Assembly (NCBI GenBank): GCA_031276175.1
Contig: JAISNP010000045.1
Span: forward strand, 6,262 to 70,261
DNA length: 64,000 nucleotides
From: Tannerella sp.
GTDB taxonomy: Bacteria > Bacteroidota > Bacteroidia > Bacteroidales > Tannerellaceae
Direction: 5' to 3'
A model generated the notes under the pieces. That model saw only the letters and a list, made by a program, of their open reading frames with translations. It was not told the origin of the DNA and made no database searches. Positions 1,136 to 62,865 of the stretch are shown piece after piece (the first letter of the stretch is position 1; each line of letters opens with the position of its first letter). Made by a program: the position numbers and the translations under genes.

Positions 1136-1375
1136 CTCGCTGTCTTCCGCGAGGTTCTCGCTGTCCTCCGCGAGACGCTCGCTGTCCTCCGCGAGGTTCT
1201 CGCTGTCCTCCGCGAGACATTCGCTGTCTTCCGCGAGACTCTCGCTGTCCTCCGCGAGGCGCTCGCTGTCCTTCGCGAGGTTCTCGCTGTCTGTCGCGAG
1301 ACGCTCGCTGTCCTTCGCGAGGCGTTCGCGGACTGTCGCGAGAACTTGGCGGACTGTCGCGAGGCGCTCGCTTTT
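1136..1375. repeat. Tandem array A: 12 units of exactly 21 bp (CTCGCTGTCYTCCGCGAGnnn)
   Basis: Unit starts at 1136, 1157, 1178, 1199, 1220, 1241, 1262, 1283, 1304, 1325, 1346 and 1367, checked by hand. Each unit carries the short inverted repeat CTCGC..GCGAG. Confidence 0.95.
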
Positions 1376-1506
1376 ATCCGGTTTTTTGCGGCAGGGATGC
1401 GCTATGCGGTGGCAGGGGGACGGGCGAATATTTCGGGGTGCGTATGCGGTCGGCGGCGAGCCGGCGGCGGCGGGTTTGTATGAAGGTGCGGCCTGGGGGT
1501 GTTGTT

Positions 1507-2541
1507 TTACACAAAAAGGCGCATCACGGTGTATACCGCGGCGGCGAGCAGGGCGCTGACGGGGATGGTGAGTATCCATGCCCAAAGCAGGTTGAGGGCG
1601 ACGCCCCAGCGGACGGCGGCGAGGCGCTTGACGGCGCCTACGCCCATGATGCTTCCGGTGATTACGTGGGTGGTGCTGACGGGTACTTTCAGTATTTCCG
1701 TCAGGAACAGCGTCAGTCCGCCTGCCATCTGGGCGCAAAAGCCGTCGAAGGCTGTGAGGCGCGTGATTTTGTTGCCCATCGTTTTCATTATTTTCCATCC
1801 GCCGGACATTGTGCCCAGCGCGATGGCGGTGAAGCAGCAGAGCGGCACCCAGTCGTGGATGTCGTGCATGGAGGAGAGTTGCATCCATTGGGGCAGGGAG
1901 GCGGCGTCGACCGAGGCGTTGAAGGAGATGAGCGCTACGCCGATTATGCCCATTACTTTTTGTGAATCGTTAAGTCCGTGGCCGATGCTCAGCACGGCGG
2001 AGGAGACGAGTTGGAGGCGTCGGAACCACTTTTCGACGCCGGCGGGTTTCGATTTCTTTACCGGATGCATGGCGATGAGCATGATGCACATTCCTCCGAA
2101 CATGCCGGTCAGCGGAGCTATGGCGATGAAGGCGATAATTTTCCATATCACGCCCGGCTCGATGGACTGGAAGCCTGCGCAGGCGATGGCTGCGCCCGAG
2201 AAGCCGCCTATGAGCGTGTGCGAGGAGGAGGAGGGTATGCCGAACCACCAGGTGACGAGGTTCCAGATGATGGCGGCTACCAGTCCGGACAGGATGACGG
2301 GCAGGGTGATGAATTCGGCGATGACCGTCTTGGACACCGTGTCGGCTATGCCGAAGTCGCCGATAATATATTTGGCGATGAAGAATGCCGCGAAGTTGAA
2401 GAATGCCGCCCAGATTACGGCTTGCGCCGTGGTGAGTACTTTGGTCGTAACTACGGTGGCAATCGAGTTGGCCGCGTCGTGGAAGCCGTTGATGTAGTCG
2501 AACACGATGGCCAGCACGAGAATTGCAATCAACATGCCCAT
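1507..2541 (-). CDS. Inorganic phosphate transporter, PiT family
   Basis: 344-aa polytopic membrane protein with FDYINGFHDAANSIAT and GGWKIMKTMG motifs typical of PitA/PiT. Confidence 0.9.
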   Translation of the reverse strand: MGMLIAILVLAIVFDYINGFHDAANSIATVVTTKVLTTAQAVIWAAFFNFAAFFIAKYIIGDFGIADTVSKTVIAEFITLPVILSGLVAAIIWNLVTWWFGIPSSSSHTLIGGFSGAAIACAGFQSIEPGVIWKIIAFIAIAPLTGMFGGMCIMLIAMHPVKKSKPAGVEKWFRRLQLVSSAVLSIGHGLNDSQKVMGIIGVALISFNASVDAASLPQWMQLSSMHDIHDWVPLCCFTAIALGTMSGGWKIMKTMGNKITRLTAFDGFCAQMAGGLTLFLTEILKVPVSTTHVITGSIMGVGAVKRLAAVRWGVALNLLWAWILTIPVSALLAAAVYTVMRLFV

Positions 2542-2544
2542 GCG

Positions 2545-3195
2545 TCAGGCGTATTTTACGATGATGGTTTTAATCACCTTGCCCACCGTGTTGACTTTGT
2601 TGGCCGAGCGTTCGAGTTCCTGTATGATTTCTTTGAGTTTGATCAGTTCTAGCGTTTTGATGTTGCTGTGGAATAGTTCTGTGATGCCTTTTTCGTATAT
2701 CGCATCGGCTTCTTCTTCCAGGGACTTGATTTTTTTCGTGCATCCGCGCACTGCGGTAGCGGATTTCCTGAGCCTGCCGAGTGCCTGTACGGCTGTGCGG
2801 ACTTCTTCCGTCTCGCGCCTGATGATTTCGGTAAGCAGCCGCGTGGACGGCGGAAGCTCTTCGGGGGTATACAGGACTACTTTTTGCGCCGAGCGGTTGA
2901 CGGCGTCGATGGCGTCGTCTATCTCGTCGGCCAGCGTGCTGATGTCTTCCCTGTCGAAGGGGGTGATGAACGTATTGTTCAGTTCCTTGAAGATTTTCTT
3001 CATCAGCTTGTCGCCTTTCAGTTCCTCGTCTTTAATCAGTTTGCACAGGTGCGCCGCTGTGCCGTCTCCGGTCGTGGCGAACAGTTCGTGCAGGAGTATG
3101 GCCGCACGGTTCAGCACGTCAGCCATTTCGTTCAGCAGCGGAAAGAATTTCCCGTCTTTGGGCGTAAAGAAGCCTGTCAATGCGTTTATGTTCAT
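2545..3195 (-). CDS. DUF47/PhoU-like phosphate transport regulator (PiT partner)
   Basis: 216-aa helical protein with 3 intervening bp between it and the PiT gene. This is the usual DUF47-PiT pairing. Confidence 0.85.
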   Translation of the reverse strand: MNINALTGFFTPKDGKFFPLLNEMADVLNRAAILLHELFATTGDGTAAHLCKLIKDEELKGDKLMKKIFKELNNTFITPFDREDISTLADEIDDAIDAVNRSAQKVVLYTPEELPPSTRLLTEIIRRETEEVRTAVQALGRLRKSATAVRGCTKKIKSLEEEADAIYEKGITELFHSNIKTLELIKLKEIIQELERSANKVNTVGKVIKTIIVKYA

Positions 3196-3259
3196 ATGCG
3201 ATAAATTGTATTTGCTGTCGGCGATAAAAAAGTATCCGCCGGGAGATACGCCGCGCGCG

Positions 3260-4051
3260 TCATACGGACGCTTTCAGTCCCCGGACTACGGCGGGGGTAA
3301 AGCCGGCATTTTCCATTTCGTTCAGGCCTTTAATCGTCAGCCCGCCGGGAGTGGTGACTTTGTCTATTTCCGCTTCGGGATGATTGCCGTTTGCCTCCAG
3401 CAGTGCGACGGCGCCCTTGAGCGTTTGCAAAACGACGTCTTTTGCCTGCGCGGGATAAAGGCCGAGTTCTACGCCGCCTTCCGTCGCCGCGCGGATGTAG
3501 CGGAAGGCATAGGCGATGCCGCACGATGCGAGCGAGGTGCCCGCCGCCATCAGGCGTTCGCCGATGAGCATCGTGGTGCCAAGCTCGTCGAAGATGCGTA
3601 CCACCGTGTCGATCTGGCTTTGGGTAGCGTTTTGCGAAGCGATGAACGTCATGCTCTGCCGCACCTCGACGGCCGTATTGGGAATCAGGCGGAACAGCGC
3701 GGGCACGACGTCCTTGTGGTTGTCCAGATACTTGTCGAGCCGGGCAAATTCGACGCCTCCCGCAATAGAGATGATGATTTGTCGCTCGTAGTCCAGCGCC
3801 TGCTTGATTCCGTAGATCACCTCTTCGAGCAGCCACGGCTTGACGGCAAGAATCACAATGTCGGCCGCATCTACGGCTGCCTTGTTGTCGGTAAACGTGC
3901 GTATTGCTCCGTGAATTTCGCGCACCCTGTCGAGCGCGTCCTGCGATTCGTCGGCGCACGCAATGTCGAACGGCTTTATCAGCGTTCCTCCCGTCAGGCC
4001 GCGCACGATGGCGCGACCCATATTTCCCGTACCTATAATTGTTATTTTCAT
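3260..4051 (-). CDS. proC: Pyrroline-5-carboxylate reductase
   Basis: 263 aa with an N-terminal Rossmann motif (IIGTGNMG) and a C-terminal ProC signature (VTTPGGLTIKGL). Confidence 0.9.
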   Translation of the reverse strand: MKITIIGTGNMGRAIVRGLTGGTLIKPFDIACADESQDALDRVREIHGAIRTFTDNKAAVDAADIVILAVKPWLLEEVIYGIKQALDYERQIIISIAGGVEFARLDKYLDNHKDVVPALFRLIPNTAVEVRQSMTFIASQNATQSQIDTVVRIFDELGTTMLIGERLMAAGTSLASCGIAYAFRYIRAATEGGVELGLYPAQAKDVVLQTLKGAVALLEANGNHPEAEIDKVTTPGGLTIKGLNEMENAGFTPAVVRGLKASV

Positions 4052-4071
4052 ACGTTTTCGTTTTTACGCGA

Positions 4072-4079
4072 CAAATATA
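4072..4079 (-). promoter_or_regulatory. -7 promoter box (TATATTTG on minus strand) for proC
   Basis: Matches TAnnTTTG about 20 nt upstream of the proC start. Confidence 0.55.
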
Positions 4080-4348
4080 CGCGAAATATTCGGAACAGAT
4101 ACAAAAGGATATGATTTGGGTGCGCGCCTGAGTTGCATCCGTCGGGCGGCGCAGGTTTTTTCTTTACGGCATCGGCTGAAAAACCGTAACACTGCGTTGT
4201 TCTGCTTCGGATACCGGCGGGGAGGAAAAGGGGGCGAGGGGAAAATTGCCTGATACGCGCCTGTATGCTTATGCGGTTTCCGCGGAAAACGGGCGCATTA
4301 AATTTAGTCAAAACATATGGGCTGCTTATTCCCGAATGAATTATTCAG

Positions 4349-4356
4349 TACTTTTG
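4349..4356 (+). promoter_or_regulatory. -7 promoter box TACTTTTG for the EamA gene
   Basis: Matches TAnnTTTG 21 nt before the ATG at 4377. This favours the 4377 start over the longest-ORF start at 4317. Confidence 0.55.
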
Positions 4357-4376
4357 CCCCGTCTAACATTGAATTT

Positions 4377-5318
4377 ATGATCGGAAAGGAAAAATTAAAG
4401 GGACACGGGATCATACTGGTTGTAAACGTATTGTTTGCCGTCAATATATCCGTTTCGAAATCGTTGATTCCGGCAGGAATGGCTCCCGAGGCGCTGACGT
4501 TGCTTCGTATCTTCTTTGCCGTGGCGATGTTCTGGCTGTCGTCCCTGTTTGTCGGGCGCGAAAAGGTGGCGCTCAAAGATTTGGGATTGCTTTTCATCTG
4601 TTCGTGCGCAGGGATAGCCTTTAACCAGAGTTTGTTTATGGAAGGATTGAATCTGACTTCGCCCGTCGATGCGTCCATCATTGCTACCGCCGGCCCGATA
4701 TACGTGATGCTGCTGGCGGCGCTGATACTGAAGGAGCCGATTACGAAGCAGAAGGTCTTCGGCGTAGCGCTGGGCGTAGGGGGCGGGGCGCTGGTGATAC
4801 TTTCTTCCGCCGGTTCGGACGACCGCAGCAGCAGTCTGGGCGGCGACATGCTCATTGTAACCAGCAATCTGCTTTATTCGATATATATCGTCATCTCGCG
4901 TCCGCTGAGCCGGCGCTATTCGGCCGTCACCATCATGAAATGGATGTTCCTCTTTTCGATGCTCATGCTTACGCCGTTCATGTACCGGCATGTGCTCGAT
5001 GCGCCTGCGTTCCGTCACAGCGCGATAGAGTGGGGAGAAACGCTTCGCATCGTCTTCGTGCTGCTGGGCGGCACGTTCATTCCTTACCTGCTCATCCCGA
5101 TGTCTCTCAAACGCTTGCGACCGACTACCGTCAGCATGTACAGCTATATCCAGCCGATTATCGCCTCGCTGCTGGCCGTGGCGGTGGGGCAGGGCAGTTT
5201 TACCGTCGACAAACTGCTTGCCGCCCTGCTTGTGTTTACGGGCGTGTATTTGGTGACGATGAGTAAAGCGCGCGAAGATGTCGAACGGGAAAAGCGGCAG
5301 TCGCAGGTTCCGGAATAG
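4377..5318 (+). CDS. EamA/DMT family transporter
   Basis: About 10 predicted TM helices in a duplicated EamA-like architecture. The start was chosen downstream of the promoter box. Confidence 0.8.
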   Translation: MIGKEKLKGHGIILVVNVLFAVNISVSKSLIPAGMAPEALTLLRIFFAVAMFWLSSLFVGREKVALKDLGLLFICSCAGIAFNQSLFMEGLNLTSPVDASIIATAGPIYVMLLAALILKEPITKQKVFGVALGVGGGALVILSSAGSDDRSSSLGGDMLIVTSNLLYSIYIVISRPLSRRYSAVTIMKWMFLFSMLMLTPFMYRHVLDAPAFRHSAIEWGETLRIVFVLLGGTFIPYLLIPMSLKRLRPTTVSMYSYIQPIIASLLAVAVGQGSFTVDKLLAALLVFTGVYLVTMSKAREDVEREKRQSQVPE

Positions 5319-5540
5319 TTTTTTCGCGCCTGATGATTCCCGATTGGAAAATAATGCGTAATATTGTCCCGGAATAAAACGCCGAACATGACGAATGTAT
5401 CATTTGCATATTATACGTGGGCAATAATGTCCGTCCCCGTGTGGGGATAAGCAGGAAGACAGGCGCGGCATCGACCGTTGCAGAGTCGGCGTACATCATT
5501 TTTTTCTCAATAATCCATATTCACTTTTAATATTGATACG

Positions 5541-7982
5541 ATGAAAGTATTGAAATTCGGCGGAACGTCGGTAGGTTCCGTGAACAGCATCCTGAGTGTA
5601 AAAAAAATAGTAGAATCGGTTGGAGAGCCGGTCACGGTTGTCGTATCCGCGCTGGGCGGGATAACCGACAAGTTGCTCGCGACCGCCAACATGGCTGCAA
5701 ACGGCGACAGGACATACGAGCGGTCGCTTTCCGAAATCATCATGCGCCATCTGGATATAATCGAAGGCGTAATCCCCGACGAAGCGTGGCGCAGGACGAC
5801 GCGGACAGACATCATGACCCTGCTGGACGAATTGTCCAACATCCTGAAAGGCGTCTGCCTGATCAGCGACCTGTCGGCAAAAACGTCCGATACGATAGTC
5901 AGCTACGGCGAACGGCTCTCGTCGCGTATCCTGACGAACGTCGTTAGGGACGCCCGTTTGTTCGACGCGCGGAAGTTCATCAAGACCATCAGGCAGTTCA
6001 ACAAACACATTGTCGATTTCGAACTCACCAACCGGCTGATTAAGGAAACGTTTGCCGCGCCGCCCGATGTGGCGATAGTGCCGGGATTCATTTCTTCCAG
6101 CAGGGACAACGGCGAGATAACCAACCTCGGCCGCGGCGGCTCGGACTACACCGCTTCCATCCTTGCGGCGGCGCTCGACGCTTCCATCCTTGAGATATGG
6201 ACGGATGTGGACGGCTTCATGACGGCAGACCCGAAGGTGATTAACTCGACATACGTGATAGAGCGGCTGTCGTTCACCGAAGCCATGGAACTGTGCAACT
6301 TCGGGGCGAAGGTGATCTATCCTCCTACGATCTATCCCGTATACCACAAGAATATCCCCATCAGGATATGCAACACCTTCAATCCCGACGCGCCGGGCAC
6401 GTACATCTCCGGCGACTGCCACCCGAACGAGCGGAAAGCGCTGATCACAGGCATCTCGTCTATCGACGACACGTGCCTCGTCACCGTGCAGGGACTGGGC
6501 ATGGTGGGCGTGATAGGCGTAAACTACCGCATATTCAAAACCCTGGCCAAAAACGGCATCAGCGCGTTCATGGTCTCGCAGGCCAGTTCGGAAAACAATA
6601 CCACCATCGCCGTGAAAAACGAAGACGCCGACCTCGCCGTACAGGTGCTGAACGAAGAGTTTGCGCTCGAACGCGCGCAGGGCGAAGTCAACGACATGGT
6701 TGCCGAGAAAGACCTGGCAACCGTCGCCATTGTGGGCGAAAACATGAAGCGCACGCCGGGAATTGCCGGCAAGCTGTTCGGCACGCTGGGACGCGCCGGC
6801 ATAAGCGTCATCGCCTGCGCACAGGGCGCTTCGGAAACAAACATCTCGTTCGTCATCAAGCGCAATTCGCTGCGGAAAGCGTTGAACTCCATTCACGACT
6901 CGTTTTTTCTCTCCGAATATAAAGCGCTGAACCTGTTTGTCGCAGGCGTGGGGACGGTCGGCGGCAAGCTGATCGAACAAATCCGGCTGCAGCAGGACTT
7001 GCTGATGAAACAAAACGGACTGAAGCTGAATCTCGTCGGGATAGCCAACTCCAAAAAAGCATTGATCAACCGCGGCGGGCTGAATCTGGATACGTGCATC
7101 GCCGAACTGAAAAGCGGCGGCCAACCCTCGTCGCACGAGGTATTGCTGGACGAGATTCTGAAGATGAACATCTTCAACTCCGTCTTCGTCGACTGCACGC
7201 CCAGCGAAGAGATTGCTTCCATCTACGAATCGCTGCTGAGCAACAACATCTCGGTCGTGGCGGCCAACAAAATCGCCGCATCGTCGTCATACGCCAATTA
7301 CCACCGGCTGAAGGAAACGGCGCGCCGGCGCGGCATCAAGTATCTGTTTGAAACAAACGTGGGCGCGGGACTGCCGATAATCAACACGATGAACGACCTC
7401 ATAAACAGCGGCGACCATATCCTGCACCTGGAAGCGGTGCTTTCGGGCACGCTCAACTTTATTTTCAACACGCTGAGCGCCGACATCCCTTTCAGCAAAG
7501 CCATCCTGATGGCGAAAGAAGCGCGGTATGCCGAGCCTGACCCGCGCGTAGACCTGAGCGGAACGGACGTGATTCGCAAACTTGTCATCCTTGCACGCGA
7601 AGCAGGATACACGGTAGAAAAGGAAGACGTGAAGATAAACCTCTTTATCCCCGAAAAATATTTTGAAGGCACGCCGGAAGATTTCCGGACAAAGATCCGC
7701 GAACTCGACGACGACTTTGAAGCCATGCGCAAAAGGGTGGAGGCAGAAAAGAAACGCATCCGCTTAGTGGCCGGAATGGACAGGGGACGATGCGAAATAG
7801 GGCTTCAGGAAGTAGACCGCCACCATCCTTTCTACGAACTGGAGGGAAGCAACAACATCATCATGATTTCTACCGAACGGTACAGAGACTATCCGATGAT
7901 CATCAAAGGCTACGGCGCAGGCGACGATGTAACGGCCGCAGGCGTGTTTGCCGACATTATTTCCATTGCGAACATCAGGTGA
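5541..7982 (+). CDS. thrA: Bifunctional aspartokinase / homoserine dehydrogenase I
   Basis: 813 aa with an N-terminal kinase motif (KFGGTSVGS), central ACT-like regions and a C-terminal homoserine dehydrogenase domain. Confidence 0.95.
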   Translation: MKVLKFGGTSVGSVNSILSVKKIVESVGEPVTVVVSALGGITDKLLATANMAANGDRTYERSLSEIIMRHLDIIEGVIPDEAWRRTTRTDIMTLLDELSNILKGVCLISDLSAKTSDTIVSYGERLSSRILTNVVRDARLFDARKFIKTIRQFNKHIVDFELTNRLIKETFAAPPDVAIVPGFISSSRDNGEITNLGRGGSDYTASILAAALDASILEIWTDVDGFMTADPKVINSTYVIERLSFTEAMELCNFGAKVIYPPTIYPVYHKNIPIRICNTFNPDAPGTYISGDCHPNERKALITGISSIDDTCLVTVQGLGMVGVIGVNYRIFKTLAKNGISAFMVSQASSENNTTIAVKNEDADLAVQVLNEEFALERAQGEVNDMVAEKDLATVAIVGENMKRTPGIAGKLFGTLGRAGISVIACAQGASETNISFVIKRNSLRKALNSIHDSFFLSEYKALNLFVAGVGTVGGKLIEQIRLQQDLLMKQNGLKLNLVGIANSKKALINRGGLNLDTCIAELKSGGQPSSHEVLLDEILKMNIFNSVFVDCTPSEEIASIYESLLSNNISVVAANKIAASSSYANYHRLKETARRRGIKYLFETNVGAGLPIINTMNDLINSGDHILHLEAVLSGTLNFIFNTLSADIPFSKAILMAKEARYAEPDPRVDLSGTDVIRKLVILAREAGYTVEKEDVKINLFIPEKYFEGTPEDFRTKIRELDDDFEAMRKRVEAEKKRIRLVAGMDRGRCEIGLQEVDRHHPFYELEGSNNIIMISTERYRDYPMIIKGYGAGDDVTAAGVFADIISIANIR

Positions 7983-10574: not shown

Positions 10575-12200
10575 TCATTCCGCATAACGGTAATGTATCG
10601 AACCGTTGACGGGGCAGCTCGCCACATTGTCTATTACGCCGTTCGGACGGATGGTATATGCCGTGATGCGGCATTTCGACAGGTTCACGGTTCTTTTCGT
10701 ATTAAATTCGCTCGTGCGGACGGTGAATTTTTTCACCGTTTCCTTTCCTCTCACTACCTGTCCGAGGTCTGTGCCGGACAGCGGGTCGTTGCCGATCGAA
10801 CAGGTGGCTATGTCGTTGTGCACGTAATCGCGTACTACGGTAAAACCCGTCTCGGACGCGGGGTCGGGAACCTGCTGGCTGTATGTGATTCCGTCTTCGA
10901 CAATGAATGCAAAGAAGCGGTAATTGCCTGTTTCGGCTCCTTTTATTTTTACCGTGAAATGAATATCCGTGCCGTTCACGCTCGATTCGATGGCGATGCC
11001 CGTCCCGGAAGCGCCGTTCCTGTCTTTTACCGAATTTTCTATGGATTTGGATATTCTGCTGATTGTTGTCGTTGCCGTAAGCTTTTCATCGTATTTGAGA
11101 TTTATTTTTGAGGAAGGAAAATAAACGTCCGAACTCAGGTTGTTGGCTATCGTGCCCATCGCGCCGGACAGATTGCTGTCGCAATGTTTTCCGCCCATGT
11201 GAAGCGCAATGCGGTGCACTGCCTGTCCGGGCGTGTTTTTCTGCACTTCGCGAATCGCCGATTCCACGCGCGGACAGTTGGGGCAAATGGTCGAGGTAAA
11301 ATCCATTACTACGTGTTGCATGAGGAATTGTTTGTCGACATAGGCGGCGCTGATTTCTACTTCGTTTGACTTTTTCCCGTCGTAAGCGGCGTAAAACGTG
11401 TATGTGCCGTAATTTTCCGTGAAAAATACGGACGCGTCGAGCGCCGTCTCCGTTCCGTCGTATTTTTGGAAAATGACGGCGTCGGATGTCACATCCTCCT
11501 CGTCGAGCGTTACCGTGAATGTCGCCTTTTCGGAAGCATCCGCCGTGACGGATGTGCGGTCTGCGGCCAGCAGAAACGGCAATTCCGTCGCTTCAATGCG
11601 TATCTCGTTCGACTTCACCCCGTCGTAAGTCGCATAAAATGTATACGTGGAAGGCGCTTTTGCGGAAAACGAAACGCGGTCTAAAACCGCCTCCTGCGCT
11701 CCCGTCAGGGTAATGACGGCCGACGGCGTCACGTCAAGCCCGTCGGCCGTGACGGTAAACCGCGCCGCATCTTTGCCGTTGGCCTTGATGGTTTCCCTGT
11801 CGGCTTGGAGCGCCACCACGACGGCAATCGCGTCGATACTGATTTCGGCGGACGTTACACCGCCGTAACTTGCGTAGAACTTGTATGTGCCCGCCTCGTC
11901 GGCAGCGAAATGATTGCCTGCCACGGTGTCCGTGCCGTTCGTTTCTTTCTTGCGGATGATAAAGACGTCCGAAACGACCTCCACGTCATTGGCCGTCACG
12001 GTAAATACCGTCGAATCACGGCCGTTTGCCTTAATCGAGGTTTTGTTTGCCGATATTTTCACGACGACCGGCTTTTCCGGTTCCGGGGAAGGCGCTGTTT
12101 TATCGTCGTCCGAGCAACTCCATATACAAAGCGCCGCTAATACATACGGCAATAGAATGAGGCGTTTTCCTGTCTGTTTCATTTTCAAATAAAATTTCAT
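10575..12200 (-). CDS. Lipoprotein with three Ig-like repeats and a C-terminal thioredoxin-fold/Omp28-like domain
   Basis: Signal peptide plus lipobox (LAALCIWSCS). Three repeats of about 90 aa (..IKANG.D...FTVTA....V....) are followed by a CPNCP motif. The start is placed after the promoter box at 12224-12231. Confidence 0.7.
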   Translation of the reverse strand: MKFYLKMKQTGKRLILLPYVLAALCIWSCSDDDKTAPSPEPEKPVVVKISANKTSIKANGRDSTVFTVTANDVEVVSDVFIIRKKETNGTDTVAGNHFAADEAGTYKFYASYGGVTSAEISIDAIAVVVALQADRETIKANGKDAARFTVTADGLDVTPSAVITLTGAQEAVLDRVSFSAKAPSTYTFYATYDGVKSNEIRIEATELPFLLAADRTSVTADASEKATFTVTLDEEDVTSDAVIFQKYDGTETALDASVFFTENYGTYTFYAAYDGKKSNEVEISAAYVDKQFLMQHVVMDFTSTICPNCPRVESAIREVQKNTPGQAVHRIALHMGGKHCDSNLSGAMGTIANNLSSDVYFPSSKINLKYDEKLTATTTISRISKSIENSVKDRNGASGTGIAIESSVNGTDIHFTVKIKGAETGNYRFFAFIVEDGITYSQQVPDPASETGFTVVRDYVHNDIATCSIGNDPLSGTDLGQVVRGKETVKKFTVRTSEFNTKRTVNLSKCRITAYTIRPNGVIDNVASCPVNGSIHYRYAE

Positions 12201-12231: not shown

Positions 12232-12478
12232 TACATTATATTCTTATGGAGACGTGACGCCTATTTCTTTTTCCCGATTCATGCTGCGCGCCTTGCAGCC
12301 TGTCGGGCAACGAATCCGATATTCATATTTTTTTTTAAAACGCTGCATTTTTCTTCACATTCTCCGTCGCCTCCCCGAAAAAAAACGCATGTGACGGCGC
12401 AAAATGTCTCCAAAAACAGGATATTCGAAAAATAATGAGCCTGAACATTAATTTCCAGCGATTTGAACTTAACTCCCT

Positions 12479-12835
12479 GCGACGCGGACTTGAGTCCCTG
12501 CGACGCGTACTCAAGTTCGCGCGATGCGAACTTGAGTTCCTGTGACGCGTACTCAAGTTCGCGCGATGCGGACTTGAGTTCCTGCGACGCGTACTCAAGT
12601 TCGCGCGACGCGGACTTGAGTTCCTGCGACGCGTACTCAAGTTCGCGCGATGCGGACTTGAGTCCCTGCGACGCGTACTCAAGTTCGCGCGATGCGGACT
12701 TGAGTTCCTGCGACGCGTACTCAAGTTCGCGCGATGCGAACTTGAGTTCCTGCGACGCGTACTCAAGTTCCTGCGATGCGGACTTGAGTTCCTGTGACGC
12801 GTACTCAAGTTCCTGCGACGCGTACTTAGGTTCTA
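12479..12835. repeat. Tandem array B: 17 units of 21 bp alternating between two types (42-bp super-unit); hairpin concatemer
   Basis: Unit starts at 12479, 12500, 12521, 12542, 12563, 12584 and onward. ACTCAAGTTCGC-GCGAT-GCGAACTTGAGT forms a 12-bp stem with a 5-nt loop every 42 bp. Confidence 0.95.
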
Positions 12836-12912
12836 ATGACGAAAAAATAAAGTTTTTTTGTTACGCAACGTTTATTTATCATCGTTTACCCCCTGTTTGT
12901 CAAATAAAATCC

Positions 12913-15343: not shown

Positions 15344-16297
15344 ATGAGACATTTTACTTGTGTACACGACATCGGAGACTTGAATCAAGCCGTACGCGAC
15401 GCGCTGGAAATCAAAAAAGACCGTTTCCGTCATACCGCGTCGGGACGAAACAAAACGCTGCTGATGATCTTCTTCAATTCAAGCCTGCGTACGCGCCTGA
15501 GCACGCAGAAGGCCGCCATGAATCTGGGGATGAACACCATTGTGCTGGATGTAAATCAGGGTGCATGGAAACTCGAAACCGAGCGGGGCGTCATCATGGA
15601 CGGCGATAAGCCCGAACATCTCCTGGAAGCCATTCCCGTAATGGGATGCTATTGCGACATCATCGGCATACGCTCGTTCGCCCGCTTCGAAAGCAAGGAA
15701 GACGATTACGAAGAAAAGATTCTGAATCAGTTCATCCGCCATTCCGGCAGACCGGTGTTCAGCATGGAGGCGGCCACCCGCCATCCGCTGCAAAGCTATG
15801 CCGACCTGATTACCATCGAGGAATACAAACGGACGGAACGCCCTAAAATAGTCATGACCTGGGCGCCTCACCCGCGCCCGCTCCCGCAGGCAGTCCCCAA
15901 CAGCTTCGCGGAATGGATCAACGCCGCCGGATACGAACTGGTAATTACGCATCCCCAAGGATACGAATTAGACGCATCCTTTGTCGGAAACGCCCGTGTG
16001 GAATACGATCAGCGCAAGGCGCTCGAAGGAGCCGATTTCGTGTACGCCAAAAATTGGGCGGCGTATGCCGATCCGAATTACGGCAAAGTGCTCGGCGTCG
16101 ACCGCGCATGGACGGTAGACGCCGAAAAAATGGCGCTGACAAACCGTGCATGGTTCATGCACTGCCTCCCCGTCCGGCGCAACATGATTGTCACCGATGA
16201 AGTGATCGAAAGCCCGCAAAGCATCGTTATCCCCGAAGCCGCCAATCGCGAAATCGCGGCGCAAGCCGTCCTGAAAAAAATCCTCGAAGGGCTGTGA
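15344..16297 (+). CDS. argF': N-succinyl/acetyl-ornithine carbamoyltransferase (Bacteroidetes ArgF'-type)
   Basis: 317 aa with transcarbamylase motifs SLRTR, HPLQ and HCLP. Resembles the Bacteroides fragilis ArgF' class. Confidence 0.85.
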   Translation: MRHFTCVHDIGDLNQAVRDALEIKKDRFRHTASGRNKTLLMIFFNSSLRTRLSTQKAAMNLGMNTIVLDVNQGAWKLETERGVIMDGDKPEHLLEAIPVMGCYCDIIGIRSFARFESKEDDYEEKILNQFIRHSGRPVFSMEAATRHPLQSYADLITIEEYKRTERPKIVMTWAPHPRPLPQAVPNSFAEWINAAGYELVITHPQGYELDASFVGNARVEYDQRKALEGADFVYAKNWAAYADPNYGKVLGVDRAWTVDAEKMALTNRAWFMHCLPVRRNMIVTDEVIESPQSIVIPEAANREIAAQAVLKKILEGL

Positions 16298-20318: not shown

Positions 20319-20326
20319 TATATTTG
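20319..20326 (+). promoter_or_regulatory. -7-like promoter box TATATTTG (distal candidate)
   Basis: Matches TAnnTTTG, but no ORF follows for more than 500 nt. Confidence 0.35.
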
Positions 20327-20590: not shown

Positions 20591-20830
20591 GCACCCTGCA
20601 AATCTGCGGCCGTCGCACTGCGGGAAACCCTTCGCACCCTGCAAAACGGCGACCGCGACCGTCGGGACGCTTTTTACACCCTGCAAAACGTCTGCCGCAA
20701 CCGTCGGGACAACTTCTGCGCCCTGCAAAACGGCGACCGCAGCCGTCGGGACAACTTCGGCCCCATGCAAAAGCCCTGCCGCATACCGCCGGCCTGTCTT
20801 TTGCACCCTGCAAACCGCCGTTTGCCGCAC
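20591..20830. repeat. Tandem array D: about 5.7 units of 42-43 bp (GCACCCTGCAAAACGGCGACCGCGACCGTCGGGAC...)
   Basis: Unit starts at 20591, 20634, 20676, 20718, 20760 and 20803. Confidence 0.9.
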
Positions 20831-20868
20831 CTCGACTTACGCTTCACTTCACCTTAAAACAAATCTCT

Positions 20869-23426: not shown

Positions 23427-23625
23427 AACGATAAACTATGGACGATAAACTATGAACGCCGGAGGCGTTGTTGCGACGAGATTCCATCTCGTCGGGTCTA
23501 TTACCGGAGATTCTATCTTCTGTATTTATATGGTATGTGCACAGATGGAATCTGCGCGAATAGGGGAGGCGAGATGGAATCTCGCCGCAACGGCGTTCAT
23601 CGTTTATAGTTTATCGTTCATAGTT
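23427..23625. repeat. Nested imperfect palindrome of about 200 bp (CGAGAT-hairpin REP family) filling a convergent intergenic gap
   Basis: Outer arms 23427-23460 and 23592-23625 match at 26 of 34 positions. Inner arms are GTTGCGACGAGATTCCATCTCG and CGAGATGGAATCTCGCCGCAAC. Confidence 0.85.
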
Positions 23626-32689: not shown

Positions 32690-32752
32690 CCGGCGAGGGT
32701 TGGCCTTCGCTTTTTTATTTTCCGAAATATATTTGATTTACGCCGCGAGGCG

Positions 32753-33151
32753 CTCGCTGTCTTCCGCGAGCGTCTCGCTGTCTTTCGCGAAGGTCTCGCT
32801 GTCTTCCGCGAGATGTGCGGGGACGTACCCGAAGGTTTCGGGGACATACCCGAAGATTTCGGGGACATTAGCGAGACGCGCGGGGACATACCCGAAGGTT
32901 GCGGGGACAGTCGCGAGATGCGCGGGGACATACCCGCGATGTGCGGGGACATACCCGGAACGCGCGGGGACATACCCGCGATGCGCGGGGACAGTCGCGA
33001 GACGTGCGGGGACATACCCGCGATGCGCGGGTATGTTAGCGAGACGTGCGGGGACATACCCGAAGGTTGCGGGGACATACCCGGAACGTGCGGGGACATA
33101 TCCGGAACGTGCGGGGACATATCCGCGCGTCGCGGGGGCGTTCGCGGCGTT
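32753..33151. repeat. Tandem array C: 19 units of exactly 21 bp; 3 array-A-type units followed by 16 GCGGGGACATACCCG-type units including hybrids
   Basis: Unit starts run 32753, 32774, 32795, 32816, 32837 ... 33131. The phase is kept across the change of unit type. Confidence 0.95.
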
Positions 33152-40093: not shown

Positions 40094-40213
40094 GCATTAG
40101 CTACCGGTCGGTAGCAGGCTTGGTTACCGGTCGGTAGCAGGCTTGGTTACCGGTCGGTAGCAGGCTTAGTTACCGGTCGGTAGCAGGCTTGGTTACCGGT
40201 CGGTAACTAATGC
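40094..40213. repeat. Tandem array G: 5 units of 23 bp (TACCGGTCGGTAGCAGGCTTGGT), bracketed by GCATTAG / CTAATGC
   Basis: TACCGGTCGGTA starts at 40102, 40125, 40148, 40171 and 40194. Each unit has a TACCG-GT-CGGTA mini-hairpin. Confidence 0.95.
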
Positions 40214-40264: not shown

Positions 40265-40555
40265 TTAATACCATCCCGGATTGTTCTCGAATCCGTTCAG
40301 GCGGCAATCTCTTTCCGGTAGCGGGAAGAGCAGTTTGTACGGCAATATATTGTATGCTTCATTCGATAAATGGCATACTTGTTTGAGTTTGGCGGCATTA
40401 GCCTGAAGGCGCGCCTTTTCGGCATTACCGTGCGCCGTCATCACCTCAATTGCGCGTCCGGTGCGCAGGAGCTGGTACCAGCGGTGATTTTCGAACGCGA
40501 CTTCTACGCGTTGTTCGTGGAAGATCATTTCGCGCAAAGCCTCCTGATCTGCCGT
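40265..40555 (-). pseudogene. C-terminal remnant of a RagB/SusD-family outer-membrane nutrient-binding protein
   Basis: The translation ..ADQEALREMIFHEQRVEVAFENHRWYQLLRTGRA...PLPERDCRLNGFENNPGWY matches only the conserved SusD C-terminus. There is no N-terminal about 450 aa, no adjacent SusC, and the track 'M' is a TTG codon. Confidence 0.7.
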
Positions 40556-54322: not shown

Positions 54323-54331
54323 GAAAAGAAA

Positions 54332-54988
54332 CTATCCGATGATTTCCGTGATTTCGTCGCTCCACGGCCCCGGCTCGAGGCGCGGATTCACCCACGCGGC
54401 GGAGATGTAGACGTGCTTGCCTTCGTCGGCATGGTCGAAAAAGATCGTATGATGCAGCCGGGTCGATACCGCCGTGCGGTAGTTCGCCTCGCCTTCCAAC
54501 TTGTAGCGAATCATAAAGCCGTGGTAGTGCTTCGGCCCCGTGCTCTCTACAGGATGACCCTGTTCGGGACGGGAAGCATAGAGCGTCATCTCGTCGTGCA
54601 GTTTCCGTATCAGCAGCACCAGCATCTCCTTCGGCGGAGGCAGGGGTTGCGACGCATGATGCTGCCGCGGACGCAGGTCCATGAATGCAAGCGCCTCGTC
54701 GGGCACATTAGTATTCACTTCGAGGTAGTCAATAAATATCCCCAGGAAGTGTTTCAATTCGCCGAACGCGGCCTTTTTGGCGGCCGAAGTCATGGCGTTT
54801 CTCGTGGCCTTGTCGCTGTTGACCTCGTAGGCGTGATTGGCGTTCTTCAGCAACGAGTCGAACTCAGTGAGTCGGTCGGGGTCTATAGCCCAGCCGGCTT
54901 TGTTCAGGTTGCACTGCGTGTTGATTGTGTTTGCCTGCGCCAGAAATTCGGCGTCGGGCTTTTCGAGGGTTCCGGATCTTCTTGTCAT
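54332..54988 (-). CDS. Hypothetical protein
   Basis: 218-aa ORF with native-looking codon usage. I recognise no family and see no signal peptide. Confidence 0.55.
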   Translation of the reverse strand: MTRRSGTLEKPDAEFLAQANTINTQCNLNKAGWAIDPDRLTEFDSLLKNANHAYEVNSDKATRNAMTSAAKKAAFGELKHFLGIFIDYLEVNTNVPDEALAFMDLRPRQHHASQPLPPPKEMLVLLIRKLHDEMTLYASRPEQGHPVESTGPKHYHGFMIRYKLEGEANYRTAVSTRLHHTIFFDHADEGKHVYISAAWVNPRLEPGPWSDEITEIIG

Positions 54989-55038: not shown

Positions 55039-55290
55039 AGAGGAGTTTTTACGTTCAAATCGTGCGCACGTTTACGTCAATCGTGCGCACTTTTAAGCCA
55101 TTCGTGCGCACGTTTAAGCCGATCGTGCGCACTTTTACGCCGATCGTGCGCACTTTTAAGCCAATCGTGCGCACTTTTACGCCAATCGTGCGCACTTTTG
55201 CGCCGATCATCCGCACGTTTTCGACAACCGTGCGCACTTTTACGTCGACCGTGCACGGGTTTTCGACAATAACGCACGCCTTTTCGTCGC
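55039..55290. repeat. Tandem array E: about 12 units of exactly 21 bp (TCGTGCGCACTTTTAMGCCRA)
   Basis: Unit starts at 55060, 55081, 55102, 55123, 55144, 55165, 55186, 55207, 55228, 55249 and 55270. Most units contain the 8-bp palindrome GTGCGCAC. Confidence 0.95.
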
Positions 55291-55383
55291 TGCTGCGTTT
55301 TTTGTCGGAAAGTGTGCCGGCGTAAACCGCGGGAAAGTGATTGTAATGATTATTCATGAGTCATTATTTATTCAAATCGGCGG

Positions 55384-55391
55384 CAAATATA
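55384..55391 (-). promoter_or_regulatory. -7 promoter box (TATATTTG on minus strand), nearest consensus box upstream of the 54988 gene
   Basis: Matches TAnnTTTG. I found no other match between it and the start codon, so array E would be transcribed as a leader of about 390 nt. Confidence 0.4.
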
Positions 55392-58298: not shown

Positions 58299-58345
58299 AC
58301 GCACGGAATGAAAGAAACGAACAACGGAAGACGAATACGATAATA

Positions 58346-60052: not shown

Positions 60053-60054
60053 AG

Positions 60055-60621
60055 ATGAAGATTATGCAGAACAGGGAATTATATACGGTAATCATCTTCT
60101 CGGAAAACACGGTGGGGCTTTTGAACCAGATTGCCATCATCTTCACGAGAAGGCAACTGAACATTGAAACGCTGTCCGTTTCGCCCTCCGCCATCGAAGG
60201 CATACACAAGTTTACCATCACGACCTTTGCCGACGTCGACACGATAGACAAGGTGGTAAAACAGATAGACAAGCGCGTGGACATCCTGAAGGCGTACTAC
60301 AACACGGACGAAGATCTCGTCTATCAGGAAATTGCACTCTACAAGCTGGCCACCGACCGGTTCCTGAAGCTGAAATCGGTAGAGGAACTTGTCCGCAAAT
60401 ACGGCGCGCGCGTGCTGGAAATCAACGAAACATGCGTGGTGCTTGAGAAAAACGGCCACTACGAAGAGACGCAGGCGCTCTTCCGCGAACTGAGCGAACG
60501 CATCGGCGTGCTGCAATTCATCCGTTCGGGGCGGATTGCCATCACCCGGAGCAAGGTGGAACGGCTGAGCGACATGCTGAAAGCAATGAAAGACCGTCTC
60601 GAAAGAAAAAGCAATGGATAG
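60055..60621 (+). CDS. ilvN: Acetolactate synthase small (regulatory) subunit
   Basis: 188 aa with an ACT-domain N-terminus (YTVIIFSENTVGLLNQI). It follows ilvB after 2 intervening bp. Confidence 0.88.
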   Translation: MKIMQNRELYTVIIFSENTVGLLNQIAIIFTRRQLNIETLSVSPSAIEGIHKFTITTFADVDTIDKVVKQIDKRVDILKAYYNTDEDLVYQEIALYKLATDRFLKLKSVEELVRKYGARVLEINETCVVLEKNGHYEETQALFRELSERIGVLQFIRSGRIAITRSKVERLSDMLKAMKDRLERKSNG

Positions 60622-61342
60622 CACGGGCACATATCCGTTCGTCACCGAATCATACCAACTCGATTTCAGGGGGCGCGTCACCCTCCCGACGATAGGGAAC
60701 TACATGCTGCACGCCGCCTCGCGCCATGCCGCCTCGCGCGGGTTCGGATTCGGAGACATGTCCGAGAGACACGCCGCATGGGTGCTCTCGCGGATGGCTA
60801 TTGAGATGACGGAATACCCGACCTTGTCGACGGGAACGCTCACCCTGCACACGTGGATCAGCGACGTCAGCCGCCTCTTCACCAGTCGCTGTTTCGAACT
60901 GGACGATGCCGGCGGCAAGCCTCTCGGATATGCACATTCCACGTGGGCAGCCATCGACATGGCTACCCGCCGCCCCATATCCCTGGACGAAGAAGCCTTG
61001 CGAGCGTACCTGACCGACCGCCCCTTTCCCGTCCGGCGGCCGGGAAAGATGCCGGCTATCGAAACGTCGACGCCGGGCGAACCGTACCGGATCAAATACA
61101 GCGACCTGGATGTGAACGGACACTTCAACAGCATCAAGTACATGGAACATATGCTGGACATGTTCGACATCGCCCGGTTTGAACAGCAGGAAGTGCGGCG
61201 TTTCGAAATCGCCTACCTGTCGGAAAGCACCGGCGGAATGTCGCTGACCATGCACATGGCGGATGCCGGCAGCGGACGCTACCACATGGCCGTCTGCTGT
61301 GCAGGCAAAGCCCTGTGCCGCGCTTCGGTCGTCTGGGAATAA
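60614..61342 (+). CDS. Acyl-[acyl-carrier-protein] thioesterase family protein
   Basis: 242 aa in a double hotdog (FatA/B-like) pattern (..YQLDFRGRVT.., ..YSDLDVNGHFNSIKY..). Overlaps ilvN by 8 bp. Confidence 0.8.
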   Translation: MDSTGTYPFVTESYQLDFRGRVTLPTIGNYMLHAASRHAASRGFGFGDMSERHAAWVLSRMAIEMTEYPTLSTGTLTLHTWISDVSRLFTSRCFELDDAGGKPLGYAHSTWAAIDMATRRPISLDEEALRAYLTDRPFPVRRPGKMPAIETSTPGEPYRIKYSDLDVNGHFNSIKYMEHMLDMFDIARFEQQEVRRFEIAYLSESTGGMSLTMHMADAGSGRYHMAVCCAGKALCRASVVWE

Positions 61343-61408
61343 CGAAACGGAAGCATACACGATATACATATACATTAAATAATACACGAATCACTAAACT
61401 TAAGAAGT

Positions 61409-62464
61409 ATGGCAATCATGAATTTTGGCGGCGTGGACGAGAACGTAGTCACCCGCGACGAATTTCCCCTGGGAAAAGCAAGAGAAGTATTGAAAGACGA
61501 GACCATCGCCGTGATAGGCTACGGCGTGCAGGGACCGGGACAAAGCATGAATCTGCGCGATAACGGATTCAAAGTAATTGTCGGCCAGCGCAAGGGCGGC
61601 AAGACGTGGGACAAGGCGGTAGCCGACGGCTGGACGCCGGGCGAAACGCTGTTTGAAATCGAAGAAGCCTGCCGGCGGGGCAGCATCATCCAGTACCTGC
61701 TCTCCGACGCGGCGCAGATAGAAGTATGGCCGCGCATCGCGAAATACCTGACGCCGGGCAAGGCGCTCTATTTCTCGCACGGCTTCGGCATCACCTACAA
61801 GGAACGCACCGGCATCATTCCCCCCGCAGACATCGACGTGATCCTCGTCGCGCCGAAAGGCTCCGGCACCTCGCTGCGACGGATGTTCCTTCAGGGACGC
61901 GGGCTGAACTCCTCGTATGCCGTCTTTCAGGACGCCACGGGGCGCGCAACAGCACGCGCCGTAGCGCTGGGCATCGGCGTAGGCTCCGGATACCTGTTTG
62001 AAACCACGTTCAAAAAAGAAGTCTATTCCGACCTGACGGGCGAACGCGGCACGCTGATGGGCGCCATTCAGGGACTGCTGCTCGCACAGTATGAAACCCT
62101 GCGCGAACACGGACACAGCCCCTCGGAAGCGTTCAACGAAACCGTCGAAGAACTGACGCAGTCGCTGATGCCCCTCTTTGCCGAAAACGGAATGGACTGG
62201 ATGTATGCCAACTGCTCAACAACCGCCCAGCGCGGCGCACTGGACTGGATGGGCGCTTTTCACGACGCCACGAAACCCGTCTTTGAAAAACTGTACACTG
62301 AAGTGGCCGCCGGCCGCGAAGCGCAGCGCTCAATAGACACGAACAGCAAGCCGGACTATCGCGCCGGCCTGGAGCGCGAACTGCAGGCGCTCCGCGAAAG
62401 CGAAATGTGGCAAGCCGGAGCCGTAGTGCGCAAACTGCGCCCGGAAGCCGGCGCCGGATTGTAA
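61409..62464 (+). CDS. ilvC: Ketol-acid reductoisomerase (class I)
   Basis: 351 aa with the NADP-binding motif GYGVQGPGQSMNLRDNG. Confidence 0.93.
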   Translation: MAIMNFGGVDENVVTRDEFPLGKAREVLKDETIAVIGYGVQGPGQSMNLRDNGFKVIVGQRKGGKTWDKAVADGWTPGETLFEIEEACRRGSIIQYLLSDAAQIEVWPRIAKYLTPGKALYFSHGFGITYKERTGIIPPADIDVILVAPKGSGTSLRRMFLQGRGLNSSYAVFQDATGRATARAVALGIGVGSGYLFETTFKKEVYSDLTGERGTLMGAIQGLLLAQYETLREHGHSPSEAFNETVEELTQSLMPLFAENGMDWMYANCSTTAQRGALDWMGAFHDATKPVFEKLYTEVAAGREAQRSIDTNSKPDYRAGLERELQALRESEMWQAGAVVRKLRPEAGAGL

Positions 62465-62645
62465 ACCAAAGCGACAAGGCGCATCATTTGATTATAATAC
62501 CGTACGCGGGGTGGTTTTTCATAAAGCCATCCCGCGTGAAGTACAGGGCGGGCGTAAAACCCCGTCCCGTCCGCACAGGACGCATCGCTTCGAACGAAGC
62601 GAACACATCGCTCCGAGAAGAACGAACAAAAAAATACGCCGACTG

Positions 62646-62865
62646 CCGCCAAAACCATGAAAAAAGTCGGAAACCTGCTTCATACCAGCGGCAGAACCGC
62701 AAAAACACGCGAAAACCTGCTTCGTACCAGCGGCAGAACCGCAAAAGCAGACGGATTCATACTTCGTACCAGCGGCAGAACCATAAAAACACGCGAAAAC
62801 CTGCTTCGTACCAGCGGCAGAACCGCAAAAACAGACGAAAACATGGTTCTGCCGCAAGTATGCGA
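62646..62865. repeat. Tandem array F: about 5 units of 42 bp (ACCAGCGGCAGAACCGCAAAA + ACACGCGAAAACCTGCTTCGT)
   Basis: ACCAGCGG starts at 62684, 62726, 62768 and 62810. The array ends in the hairpin GGCAGAACC-N20-GGTTCTGCC (62816-62853). Confidence 0.9.

Follow-up and report, generated by a model that had tools for sequence, protein, structure and literature searches.

Intergenic regions of Porphyromonas gingivalis carry tandem repeats with units of 22, 23 (BrickBuilt) and 41 nt (MITE464/PgRS), in arrays of up to about 23 copies that are restricted to the species and vary in copy number between its strains (Klein et al., 2015, PMC4596501). Here we describe tandem arrays of the same kind and size class in a stretch of 64,000 nucleotides from a Tannerella sp. 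metagenome-assembled genome (MAG; GenBank assembly GCA_031276175.1, contig JAISNP010000045.1, positions 6,262 to 70,261 of the forward strand), which we call the window and whose own numbering we use throughout. Seven such arrays, A to G, lie in its intergenic gaps. Their units fall into at least five unrelated sequences, and yet four of the arrays repeat at exactly 21 bp and two at 42 bp, the seventh having a unit of 23 bp. The kind of repeat is known; what is new here is that the period of an intergenic minisatellite is conserved across unrelated families.

The P. gingivalis minisatellites are the closest described system. Like them, the arrays of the window occur in the Bacteroidales, are strictly intergenic and consist of imperfect head-to-tail copies, and the long stem-loops formed by BrickBuilt units are also predicted for arrays G (RNA fold z = −9.8 against shuffles) and B (z = −7.6), though not for D and F. 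The features that define BrickBuilt are missing. Each P. gingivalis family is one unit dispersed with a shared leader, tail and IS5-like terminal repeats, whereas the five or more unrelated units found here have no common flanks, and one exact period (21 or 42 bp) running across families is not reported for P. gingivalis. The 23-nt BrickBuilt unit, AGAYCATARTATCCTCTCRTRTG, has no match in the window at up to three mismatches (the unit of array G is GGCTTGGTTACCGGTCGGTAGCA), and the IS5-like terminal repeat GAGACCTTTGCA has three, a chance-level number, none of them at an array boundary and one (32786-32797) inside array C. The initial annotation of this stretch, which was made from the sequence alone, knew of no described system that accounts for the pattern; with repeats of 22, 23 and 41 nt as near-equals in a sister family (PMC4596501), that statement was too strong.

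Several other systems resemble the arrays in part, and each of them fails at least one defining feature that we tested. The REP, BIME and REPIN elements of proteobacteria are short, imperfect extragenic palindromes of about 20-40 nt, species-specific and mobilized by RAYT, that are present in hundreds of single or paired copies (RAYT being a Y1 transposase). Tandem clusters of alternating orientation (compare array B) and a location at gene 3′ ends (compare C and G) recall these elements; however, the 64 kb hold no solitary copies and no RAYT gene, D and F are non-palindromic, and the period is strict. A spacing of two helical turns is textbook for iterons and operators: plasmid iterons of 17-22 bp are spaced at about 22 bp, sopC has 12 units of 43 bp, and the bound proteins lie on one face of the DNA. 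The arrays are like iterons and centromere repeats in being direct repeats phased at two or four turns (periods here 21, 21, 21, 21, 42 and 42 bp). Iteron arrays, in contrast, serve one replicon function and adjoin a rep, par or repressor gene, while the seven arrays of the window are spread among housekeeping genes with neither, and their copy numbers are far above those of operator arrays. From CRISPR they differ in their contiguous units, in linkers of 3-6 bp drawn from a small repertoire in place of unique spacers, and in the absence of cas genes from the window. Borg repeats form many independent arrays with unique units, both genic and intergenic, that are nearly absent from relatives; these repeats are perfect and A-rich and come in many unit lengths, of which 14-38% are divisible by three in the intergenic arrays (Schoelmerich et al., 2023, PMC9879509). 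The genome-specific proliferation of independent arrays with unique units is common to both, but the arrays described here are imperfect, mostly GC-rich and of one period. In the literature on a 21-bp or two-turn rule for bacterial intergenic repeats we found the BrickBuilt and Borg repeats only.

Register and anatomy of the arrays

The seven arrays are the following:

Array A, 1136-1375: 11 units of 21 bp and a partial one.
Array B, 12458-12835: 17-18 half-units of 21 bp, in two alternating types that give a 42-bp period.
Array C, 32745-33151: 19 units of 21 bp in a single register.
Array D, 20591-20842: about 5.7 units of 42/43 bp (CGCACCCTGCAAAACGGCGAC followed by CGCAACCGTCGGGACAACTTC).
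Array E, 55039-55311: about 12 units of 21 bp (TCGTGCGCAC-TTTT-ACGCCGA), its edges degenerate yet in register.
Array F, 62646-62865: about 5 units of 42 bp (GCGGCAGAACCGCAAAAACACGCGAAAACCTGCTTCGTACCA).
Array G, 40094-40213: 5 units of 23 bp, each a TACCGGTCGGTA dyad (TACCG-GT-CGGTA) with an 11-bp linker.

Tandem Repeats Finder (TRF) recovered all seven at the places given in the initial annotation (A 1135-1372, 21 bp; B 12479-12841, 42 bp with 21-bp halves; C 32743-33137, 21 bp; D 20630-20792, 42 bp; E 55058-55244, 21 bp; F 62671-62849, 42 bp; G 40102-40205, 23 bp), with between-unit identities of 67-94%. Printing the units in register showed that A, B, C and E advance in steps of exactly 21 bp with zero indels, degenerate edge units included, just as that annotation had held from unit start positions. 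Counted in this way, A has 11 units and a partial one, B has 17 and a degenerate one at 12458, C has 19 and E about 12. The same print gives D a period of 42 bp with two 43-bp steps, F a period of 42 bp and G one of 23 bp, which makes G the sole array off the 21/42-bp register. In A, B, C and E a super-period of 42 bp, whose source is the alternation of linker variants, is slightly stronger than the 21-bp period itself: identity at lag 42 is 0.82, 0.93, 0.73 and 0.76, respectively, against 0.79, 0.73, 0.71 and 0.74 at lag 21. D retains a weak 21-bp sub-period (half-units identical at 11 of 21 positions, z about 2.3); a sub-period of this length was looked for in F and not found. Autocorrelation revealed no hidden 7-bp sub-period within the 21-bp units.

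Arrays are also unusually dense in the window. Each of its five largest intergenic gaps (479-694 bp) holds one, in keeping with the earlier statement that arrays fill most of the larger gaps, and G lies in a gap of 251 bp. As background we used 80 ilvC-centered loci (L001-L080) from other Bacteroidota genomes, 1.36 Mb in all. Arrays of at least 80 bp number seven in these 1.36 Mb and seven in the 64 kb of the window, and none of the seven background arrays has a unit period of 21 or 42 bp, although one of them, a 7-bp array, is scored by TRF also at 14, 21 and 28 bp. The array density of the window is not explained by chance. Within each array the longest exact repeat is at most 65 bp, so that short reads can assemble the arrays uniquely, and we saw no sign of collapse or artefact.

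We compared the unit sequences with one another as 42-bp consensuses, testing every rotation on either strand and using shuffles as the control. Only A and C are similar (P = 0.02); every other pair gave P = 0.07-0.81, which bears out the earlier claim that the units of B, D, E and F are unrelated to each other and to the A/C family. The link between A and C consists of hybrid units in register that form the series A, A′ (TTCGCGGACTGTCGCGAG), C′ (TGCGGGGACAGTCGCGAG) and C (TGCGGGGACATACCCGAAG). Outside the arrays no unit-like copy was found in the 64 kb at up to 4 mismatches in 21, and the 300-bp flanks of all arrays gave chance-level matches only, with no common leader, tail or terminal repeat. 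Units and flanks being unrelated, there is support for the view that the arrays have a period rather than a sequence in common, and this view is extended by two observations described below, namely a 21-bp array in a second Tannerella MAG and a preference for 21-22 bp in the 80 background loci.

Common to the arrays is a general unit plan in which a conserved core is joined to a short variable linker, with variation concentrated in loops and linkers. The core of A, CTCGC-TGTCCTCC-GCGAG, is dyad-symmetric (CTCGC-N8-GCGAG) and its 3-bp linker alternates between GTT and ACG; the variable positions are 10-12 in the loop and 19-21 in the linker, and the final two units are of the variant type A′. 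In B the two half-unit types, GCGACGCGTACTCAAGTTCGC and GCGATGCGGACTTGAGTTCCT, have cores, ACTCAAGT and ACTTGAGT, that are mutually reverse-complementary, so adjacent half-units pair into a 12-bp stem. C opens with three A-type units, followed by GCGGGGACATACCCG cores with 6-bp linkers and by hybrids (GCGGGGACAGTCGCGAG); its core is laid out as CGGGG-ACATA-CCCG. The unit of E is a palindrome of 8-10 bp, (C)GTGCGCAC(G), followed by a phased T-tract, TTTT. G is flanked by GCATTAG and CTAATGC, and the entire array is predicted to form one long hairpin. A dyad or palindrome is thus part of the unit in A, B, C, E and G and absent from D and F. D has phased A/T-tracts instead, and F has two A-tracts per unit, 11 bp apart, with an inverted copy of the core at its right end.

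The window is core chromosome of a Tannerella-like gut bacterium, and its nameable genes are housekeeping genes (thrA, thrC, proB, proA, argF, ilvD, ilvB, ilvN, ilvC, nadC, cls, tsaE and others); several open reading frames (ORFs), some of them beside D, E and F, have no family match. Among the window genes we found no transposase, integrase, rep/par, Rep, ParA/B, RHH, cas or RAYT gene, and a search of the window against Rfam returned a tRNA-Ser only, leaving the arrays without an RNA family match. A lies between a PiT/PHO4 gene (1507-2541, −) and a CN-hydrolase gene (31-813, −). B is flanked by an Omp28-like gene (−) and proB (+), with the TATCTTTG box of proB about 80 bp downstream of the array. 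C is placed where nadC (+) and a TPR gene (−) converge with their 3′ ends, with a TATATTTG box at 32728 reading into it. D ends about 40 bp ahead of the ATG (20869) of a DUF6261 gene and has TAnnTTTG boxes upstream at 20319 and 20424. E has a hypothetical gene (54332-54988, −) downstream of it and, upstream, a TATATTTG box on the − strand (55384-55391). F follows ilvC (+) and precedes a lipoprotein gene (63021, +), whose TACCTTTG box is about 120 bp downstream of the array. G has cls (+) on one side and a SusD fragment (−) on the other, with a terminator-like hairpin after the array. The neighboring genes accordingly run in the same direction around A, D, E and F, diverge around B and converge with their 3′ ends on C and G. 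Arrays A to C are GC-rich, and the gaps holding A and C have a GC content of 64%. Boxes of the Bacteroidetes type (TAnnTTTG) are directed into C, D and E; for A, B and F they are located on the downstream side, and near G there are none. We considered promoter function as a common role and rejected it, the box geometry being inconsistent and the box count not above chance.

Several features adjoin the arrays or their neighbors. A GC-rich motif, GCGGCGCGGCG, occurs three to four times at irregular spacing directly to the left of A (1027-1135), and a 23-bp repeat (CATCGCTCCGAAAGAAGCGAACA, 2 copies) lies just left of F at 62583-62628. The SusD-family remnant beside G (40265-40537, −) comprises the C-terminal 90 amino acids only (profile positions 209-297 of 297). 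The probable start of the Omp28-like gene is near 12179 and not at 12236, judging from the alignment with the relative L086 introduced below. Long spurious ORFs run opposite real genes because of the high GC content, for example a 535-amino-acid ORF (2507-4114, +) opposite PhoU_div and proC. Flanked by two gene 3′ ends, those of a T9SS LRR protein gene and of a GH36 gene, lies a palindromic element of about 200 bp (23427-23625) that resembles a transposable element of the miniature inverted-repeat kind (MITE); its 35-nt terminal inverted arms each consist of two 14-bp tandem units (ACGATAAACTATGG), and a 49-nt inverted pair lies inside them.

Arrays in relatives and in other Bacteroidota

Loci from relatives (L001, L081, L082 and L084-L091, about 144 kb, with YgiQ, PiT or IlvC 70-91% identical in amino acid sequence and 85-90% in the nearest) contain no 21- or 42-bp array of at least three copies. 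Among species-representative genomes, Tannerella, Gallibacteroides and Parabacteroides have the ilvC loci closest to that of the window, the best at 91-92% amino acid identity. In L086 (PiT 90% identical) an Omp28-like gene is followed by proB as in the window, and the promoter regions are about 80% identical. The gap there is 145 bp, and relative to it (L086 2463-2504) the window has a surplus of about 565 bp, of which array B makes up only 378 bp; the rest, about 120 bp on the left (12338-12457) and about 65 bp on the right (12836-12902), is unique and has no obvious inverted ends. L001 has ordinary DNA after ilvC and after cls, where the window has F and G.

Two of the related Tannerella MAGs do carry arrays of this size class. 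In L083 (GCA_031266995.1, JAIRZY010000038.1, 299-571; YgiQ 81% identical) we found 12-13 units of 21 bp, CCGGCGGCTGGCTGTCTTTTA, without an indel, preceded in one register by two units of another type (TGGGACGGNTGGGG...). The L083 unit is not significantly similar to the families of the window, though it has the 8-mer GCTGTCTT in common with the A unit. L091 (PiT 78% identical) has 22-bp units in two blocks of inverted orientation (6764-6877), and at 15745-15841 a 23/46-bp array with the unit dyad ATGAGA-N5-TCTCAT. Scans of metagenomes gave no match to a two-unit A pattern or to the L083 unit. A viral origin was considered and set aside, the E and B patterns having no match in a collection of viral contigs.

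In the 80 background loci, ten arrays reach three copies and a smallest period of 15 bp or more; their periods are 22, 22, 22, 22, 21, 21, 21, 15, 72 and 90 bp, so that 21-22 bp is the commonest period, seen in seven of ten. Two-copy rows at 21-22 bp were discounted as probably an effect of the TRF score threshold, to which arrays of three or more copies are not subject. Four of the background arrays, all intergenic and from four unrelated genomes of the Bacteroidales, were reported as 22 bp x 3.5, that is, four cores at a spacing of two helical turns, each of a different sequence and mostly an obvious palindrome or dyad:

L003, 3153-3229: 22 bp x 3.5, with a ACCATGGT core, 65 bp upstream of an HU-HIG (PF18291) DNA-binding gene.
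L021, 4514-4591: 22 bp x 3.5, an 18-bp perfect palindrome, GTGGAACGATCGTTCCAC.
L028, 2902-2979: 22 bp x 3.5.
L039, 585-658: 22 bp x 3.5.

Judged by sequence, these four-core arrays resemble phased operator arrays. Units measuring close to two or four helical turns are found repeatedly in Bacteroidota; what distinguishes the lineage of the window is the length of its arrays (12-19 copies, seven arrays per 64 kb) and their exact period. Heptamer arrays with 7- or 14-bp periods, for example (AATCTTG)n, (GAATTAA)n, (GCGATAA)n and (AGTAATT)n, are the commonest class of tandem repeat in L001-L080. They adjoin the 21- and 22-bp arrays in L083 (616-793) and L091 (6888-6935), and one in L009 (9892-9973) ends about 30 bp before ilvC.

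Readings of the shared period

The reading we favor, tentatively, sees the arrays as lineage-specific, non-coding minisatellites whose basic module spans two helical turns and which have been much expanded by whole-unit slippage. Each unit would consist of a conserved core and a short variable linker that together sum to 21 bp, the core being a small dyad in A, B, C, E and G, with a phased T-tract added in E, and phased A/T-tracts taking the place of the dyad in D and F. A step of 21 bp sets successive cores on one face of B-DNA, and the outcome may be either a straight row of identical sites (A, B and C) or an intrinsically bent segment (D, E and F). The constraint on phase may accordingly serve cooperative protein binding in A, B, C and the four-core arrays of other Bacteroidota, or coherent bending in D, E, F and L083. 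Array length would change in both directions through slipped-strand mispairing or unequal sister exchange, with one whole unit or, more commonly, two gained or lost at a time. We propose that two-unit steps gave rise to the 42-bp super-period, and divergence of the half-units would then yield pure 42-bp arrays. The period would reflect a constraint wider than one genome, by which tandem sites in Bacteroidota intergenic DNA are preferentially 21-22 bp apart, and in the lineage of the window such arrays would have expanded from a few copies to 12-19. We infer, in sum, that helical phasing, for same-face protein binding or for bending, fixes the period, that slippage is the mechanism of growth, and that the arrays act as architectural or protein-loading DNA and not as junk.

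Several lines of evidence point in this direction. First, zero indels occur in about 60 units of A, B, C and E and in 13 of L083, even across changes of unit type. Second, conserved cores with variable loops and linkers are the pattern expected of arrays of sites and not of codons. Third, the 42-bp super-period in all four 21-bp arrays, together with the residual 21-bp period of D, fits growth in steps of two units. Also in favor are the unrelated units and flanks with no solitary unit elsewhere in the window, the arrays of L083 and L091, the preference for 21-22 bp in the background loci, the precedent of P. gingivalis, the predicted curvature of D, E and F, and a window free of mobile-element, rep/par and cas genes. 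Of the three explanations offered in the initial annotation, that only two-turn expansions are tolerated because they preserve the phasing of flanking regulatory DNA, that the arrays are phased binding platforms, and that a single length-measuring mechanism generates them, none is singled out by the available data; the first, however, does not fit C and G, because both lie between convergent 3′ ends.

Neither of two structural properties that might unite the arrays is common to all of them, which leaves the period alone as the shared trait. RNA folding against shuffles gave z scores of −2.4 for A and −4.2 for both C and E, to be set beside those of B and G above, while D (+1.6) and F (−0.7) have no structure beyond that of shuffles; hairpin formation was therefore rejected as a common denominator. 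In a wedge model applied to sampled 210-bp windows, D, E and F are predicted to be among the top 0-1.5% of curved segments, with a maximum at the observed period, F being the most curved of the segments sampled, and A, B, C and G are predicted to be straight. Curvature, confined to D, E and F, was likewise rejected.

A number of points weigh against the reading of phased, slippage-grown minisatellites. The function it gives to the arrays is purely what we infer. Its six or more unrelated cores would call for several proteins, or for one protein that reads DNA shape. The 23-bp period of G, the 22 and 23 bp of L091 and the 22, 23 and 41 bp of P. gingivalis are all off an exact phasing at 10.5 bp, so that a loose rule of two turns does not fully explain a value of exactly 21.0 bp. 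With A, B and C predicted to be straight and D and F lacking a dyad, the period is the only structural property that the arrays have in common, and the curvature values, computed with wedge parameters after Bolshoy et al. (1991), are indicative only. At the site in L086 orthologous to that of B there is no short precursor array. Finally, the background consists of 80 loci around one gene, from Bacteroidota only, rather than of whole genomes, and the evidence of the window comes from one 64-kb stretch of one MAG.

The main rival is common descent with fast unit turnover, which we consider unlikely. Here one ancestral 21-bp minisatellite would have been copied to new intergenic sites, its period being inherited through whole-unit changes while its cores turned over rapidly by substitution, palindrome-templated inversion and homogenization. 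A-type units do occur at two loci 31 kb apart and in the same polarity, with the A-type to the left and the A′ or C-type to the right, and the series A, A′, C′ and C is stepwise and in one register. L083 likewise has two unit types adjacent in register, in-place inversions of the core are seen in B (ACTCAAGT/ACTTGAGT) and in one unit of C (ACATA/TATGT), and the divergence of half-units is graded through B, D and F (lag-21 identity 0.73, 0.37 and 0.30). Against these signs of shared ancestry, no similarity is detectable among the families B, D, E, F, L083 and A/C, and no common flanks or terminal repeats account for dispersal. Neutral turnover long enough to erase 21 bp of sequence should also let the unit length drift, yet four arrays are at exactly 21 bp and two at exactly 42. 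Nor can descent account for the preference for 21-22 bp in distant Bacteroidota with unrelated units.

A further reading would be a building rule of the Bacteroidales, by which intergenic tandem arrays are put together from modules of two helical turns whatever their sequence and are kept at exactly 21.0 bp in this lineage by a shape-reading architectural protein (HU-like, for example) or by a dedicated duplication mechanism. We think this improbable; were it true, the arrays would be a bacterial counterpart of phased satellite DNA, structuring the nucleoid or tuning nearby promoters.

It is still more doubtful that an enzyme acts as the ruler. An integrase or transposase with a 21-bp stagger, for example, would duplicate an arbitrary target in each cycle of insertion and excision, and its footprints would build up an array. 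The duplication of CRISPR repeats by Cas1-Cas2 is a known example of the ruler type, and such an enzyme would cover at one stroke the unrelated units with one exact period, the occurrence in every intergenic context and the restriction to a lineage. However, the 64 kb contain no integrase, transposase or cas gene, and we know of no transposon that makes 21-bp target duplications. The enzyme would also leave the plan of conserved core and variable linker and the 22/23-bp arrays of relatives unexplained, and dyad cores are not something it predicts.

An equally doubtful proposal is that one or more MITE-like mobile elements contain the arrays as their minisatellite cores, in the manner of BrickBuilt and PgRS. 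Their solely intergenic location and their unit sizes recall P. gingivalis, as do the long stem-loops of G and B, which BrickBuilt also forms (PMC4596501), and the window holds a separate palindromic element at 23427-23625. The surplus of about 565 bp relative to L086, of which the array is only 378 bp, means that a leader and a tail may exist at B. On the other hand, no two arrays have a leader, tail or terminal inverted repeat in common, the BrickBuilt unit is unmatched and the IS5-like terminal repeat matches at chance frequency, the borders of the B insert show neither clear inverted ends nor a target duplication on inspection, and there is no transposase in the window.

We also weighed translation. 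The arrays would in this case encode small repeat peptides or N-terminal extensions, with 7 or 14 codons per unit, and the reading frame would fix the period at a multiple of three. Every 21/42-bp array does have at least one stop-free frame (A 6 of 6, D 5, C 4, F 3, B 2 and E 1), and the 23-bp array G has none (0 of 6). In each of A to F, exactly one frame has positive, gene-like codon usage (A −0, B −2, C +0, D +0, E −2, F +2), and the summed score has P of about 0.002 against column-shuffled units, in a test picked after the data had been seen. The substitution pattern in these frames is nevertheless not protein-like; DNA that was once coding may have seeded the arrays. In the best frames pN/pS is not low (A 0.46, B 0.40, C 0.97, D 1.6, E 1.2, F 6.7), the changes falling in loops and linkers and not at third codon positions.

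We count translation as a minor rival, for which array E makes the strongest case. An ORF of 100 amino acids begins there with an ATG and runs from 55357 to 55055 (−), a unique N-terminus of 32 residues preceding about nine VKVRTIG-like heptads. Its codon usage is the most gene-like of the array frames (0.56 per codon, P = 0.03), and a TATATTTG box is found about 27 nt before the ATG, which is 20 nt past the start site expected from that box. Frames initiated by ATG are also present in C, D and F, whereas the best frames of A, B and D have no ATG adjoining the array; their listed ORFs start, respectively, at an ATG (1888) inside PHO4, at a TTG in the array and at a GTG. Searching 17 selected stop-free frames (a concatenate of 1388 amino acids that does not include the best frame of D, +0) against 5.8 billion protein clusters returned no homologue, and the E ORF, the sole array ORF submitted to Pfam and NCBIfam, matched no family in either. 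A frame constraint would moreover allow any multiple of three and not just 21 and 42, and the related 22- and 23-bp arrays of L091, G and P. gingivalis cannot be coding repeats. The lack of homologues in the selected frames and the pN/pS values fit the earlier view of the repetitive ORFs as pseudo-ORFs, and we judge translation as a general account of the arrays very unlikely.

Finally, that metagenome assembly produced the arrays is highly improbable: although the source is a MAG contig and tandem repeats are known to cause assembly error, the units are divergent, k-mers above about 70 are unambiguous given exact repeats of at most 65 bp, all seven arrays are set in unique flanks inside one contig of 84.8 kb, and the independent MAG assembly of L083 has a like array.

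A unit length conserved across families

The regularity is real and its precedents are partial only. Bacterial minisatellites have mostly been handled family by family, as typing markers or as contingency loci, and here a unit length is conserved across unrelated families, in two MAGs and, loosely (21-23 and 41-46 bp), across the Bacteroidales. In practical terms, such arrays enlarge intergenic gaps, generate pseudo-ORFs and can break short-read assemblies. If the period is merely inherited, the arrays would be a clean bacterial case of satellite-like concerted evolution, in which cores turn over within a fixed register. If instead a physical rule fixes the period, be it phasing, a shape-reading protein or a ruler enzyme, an excess of periods at multiples of about 10.5 bp would be expected in complete genomes, and a major gut phylum would have a layer of genome architecture that does not depend on sequence.

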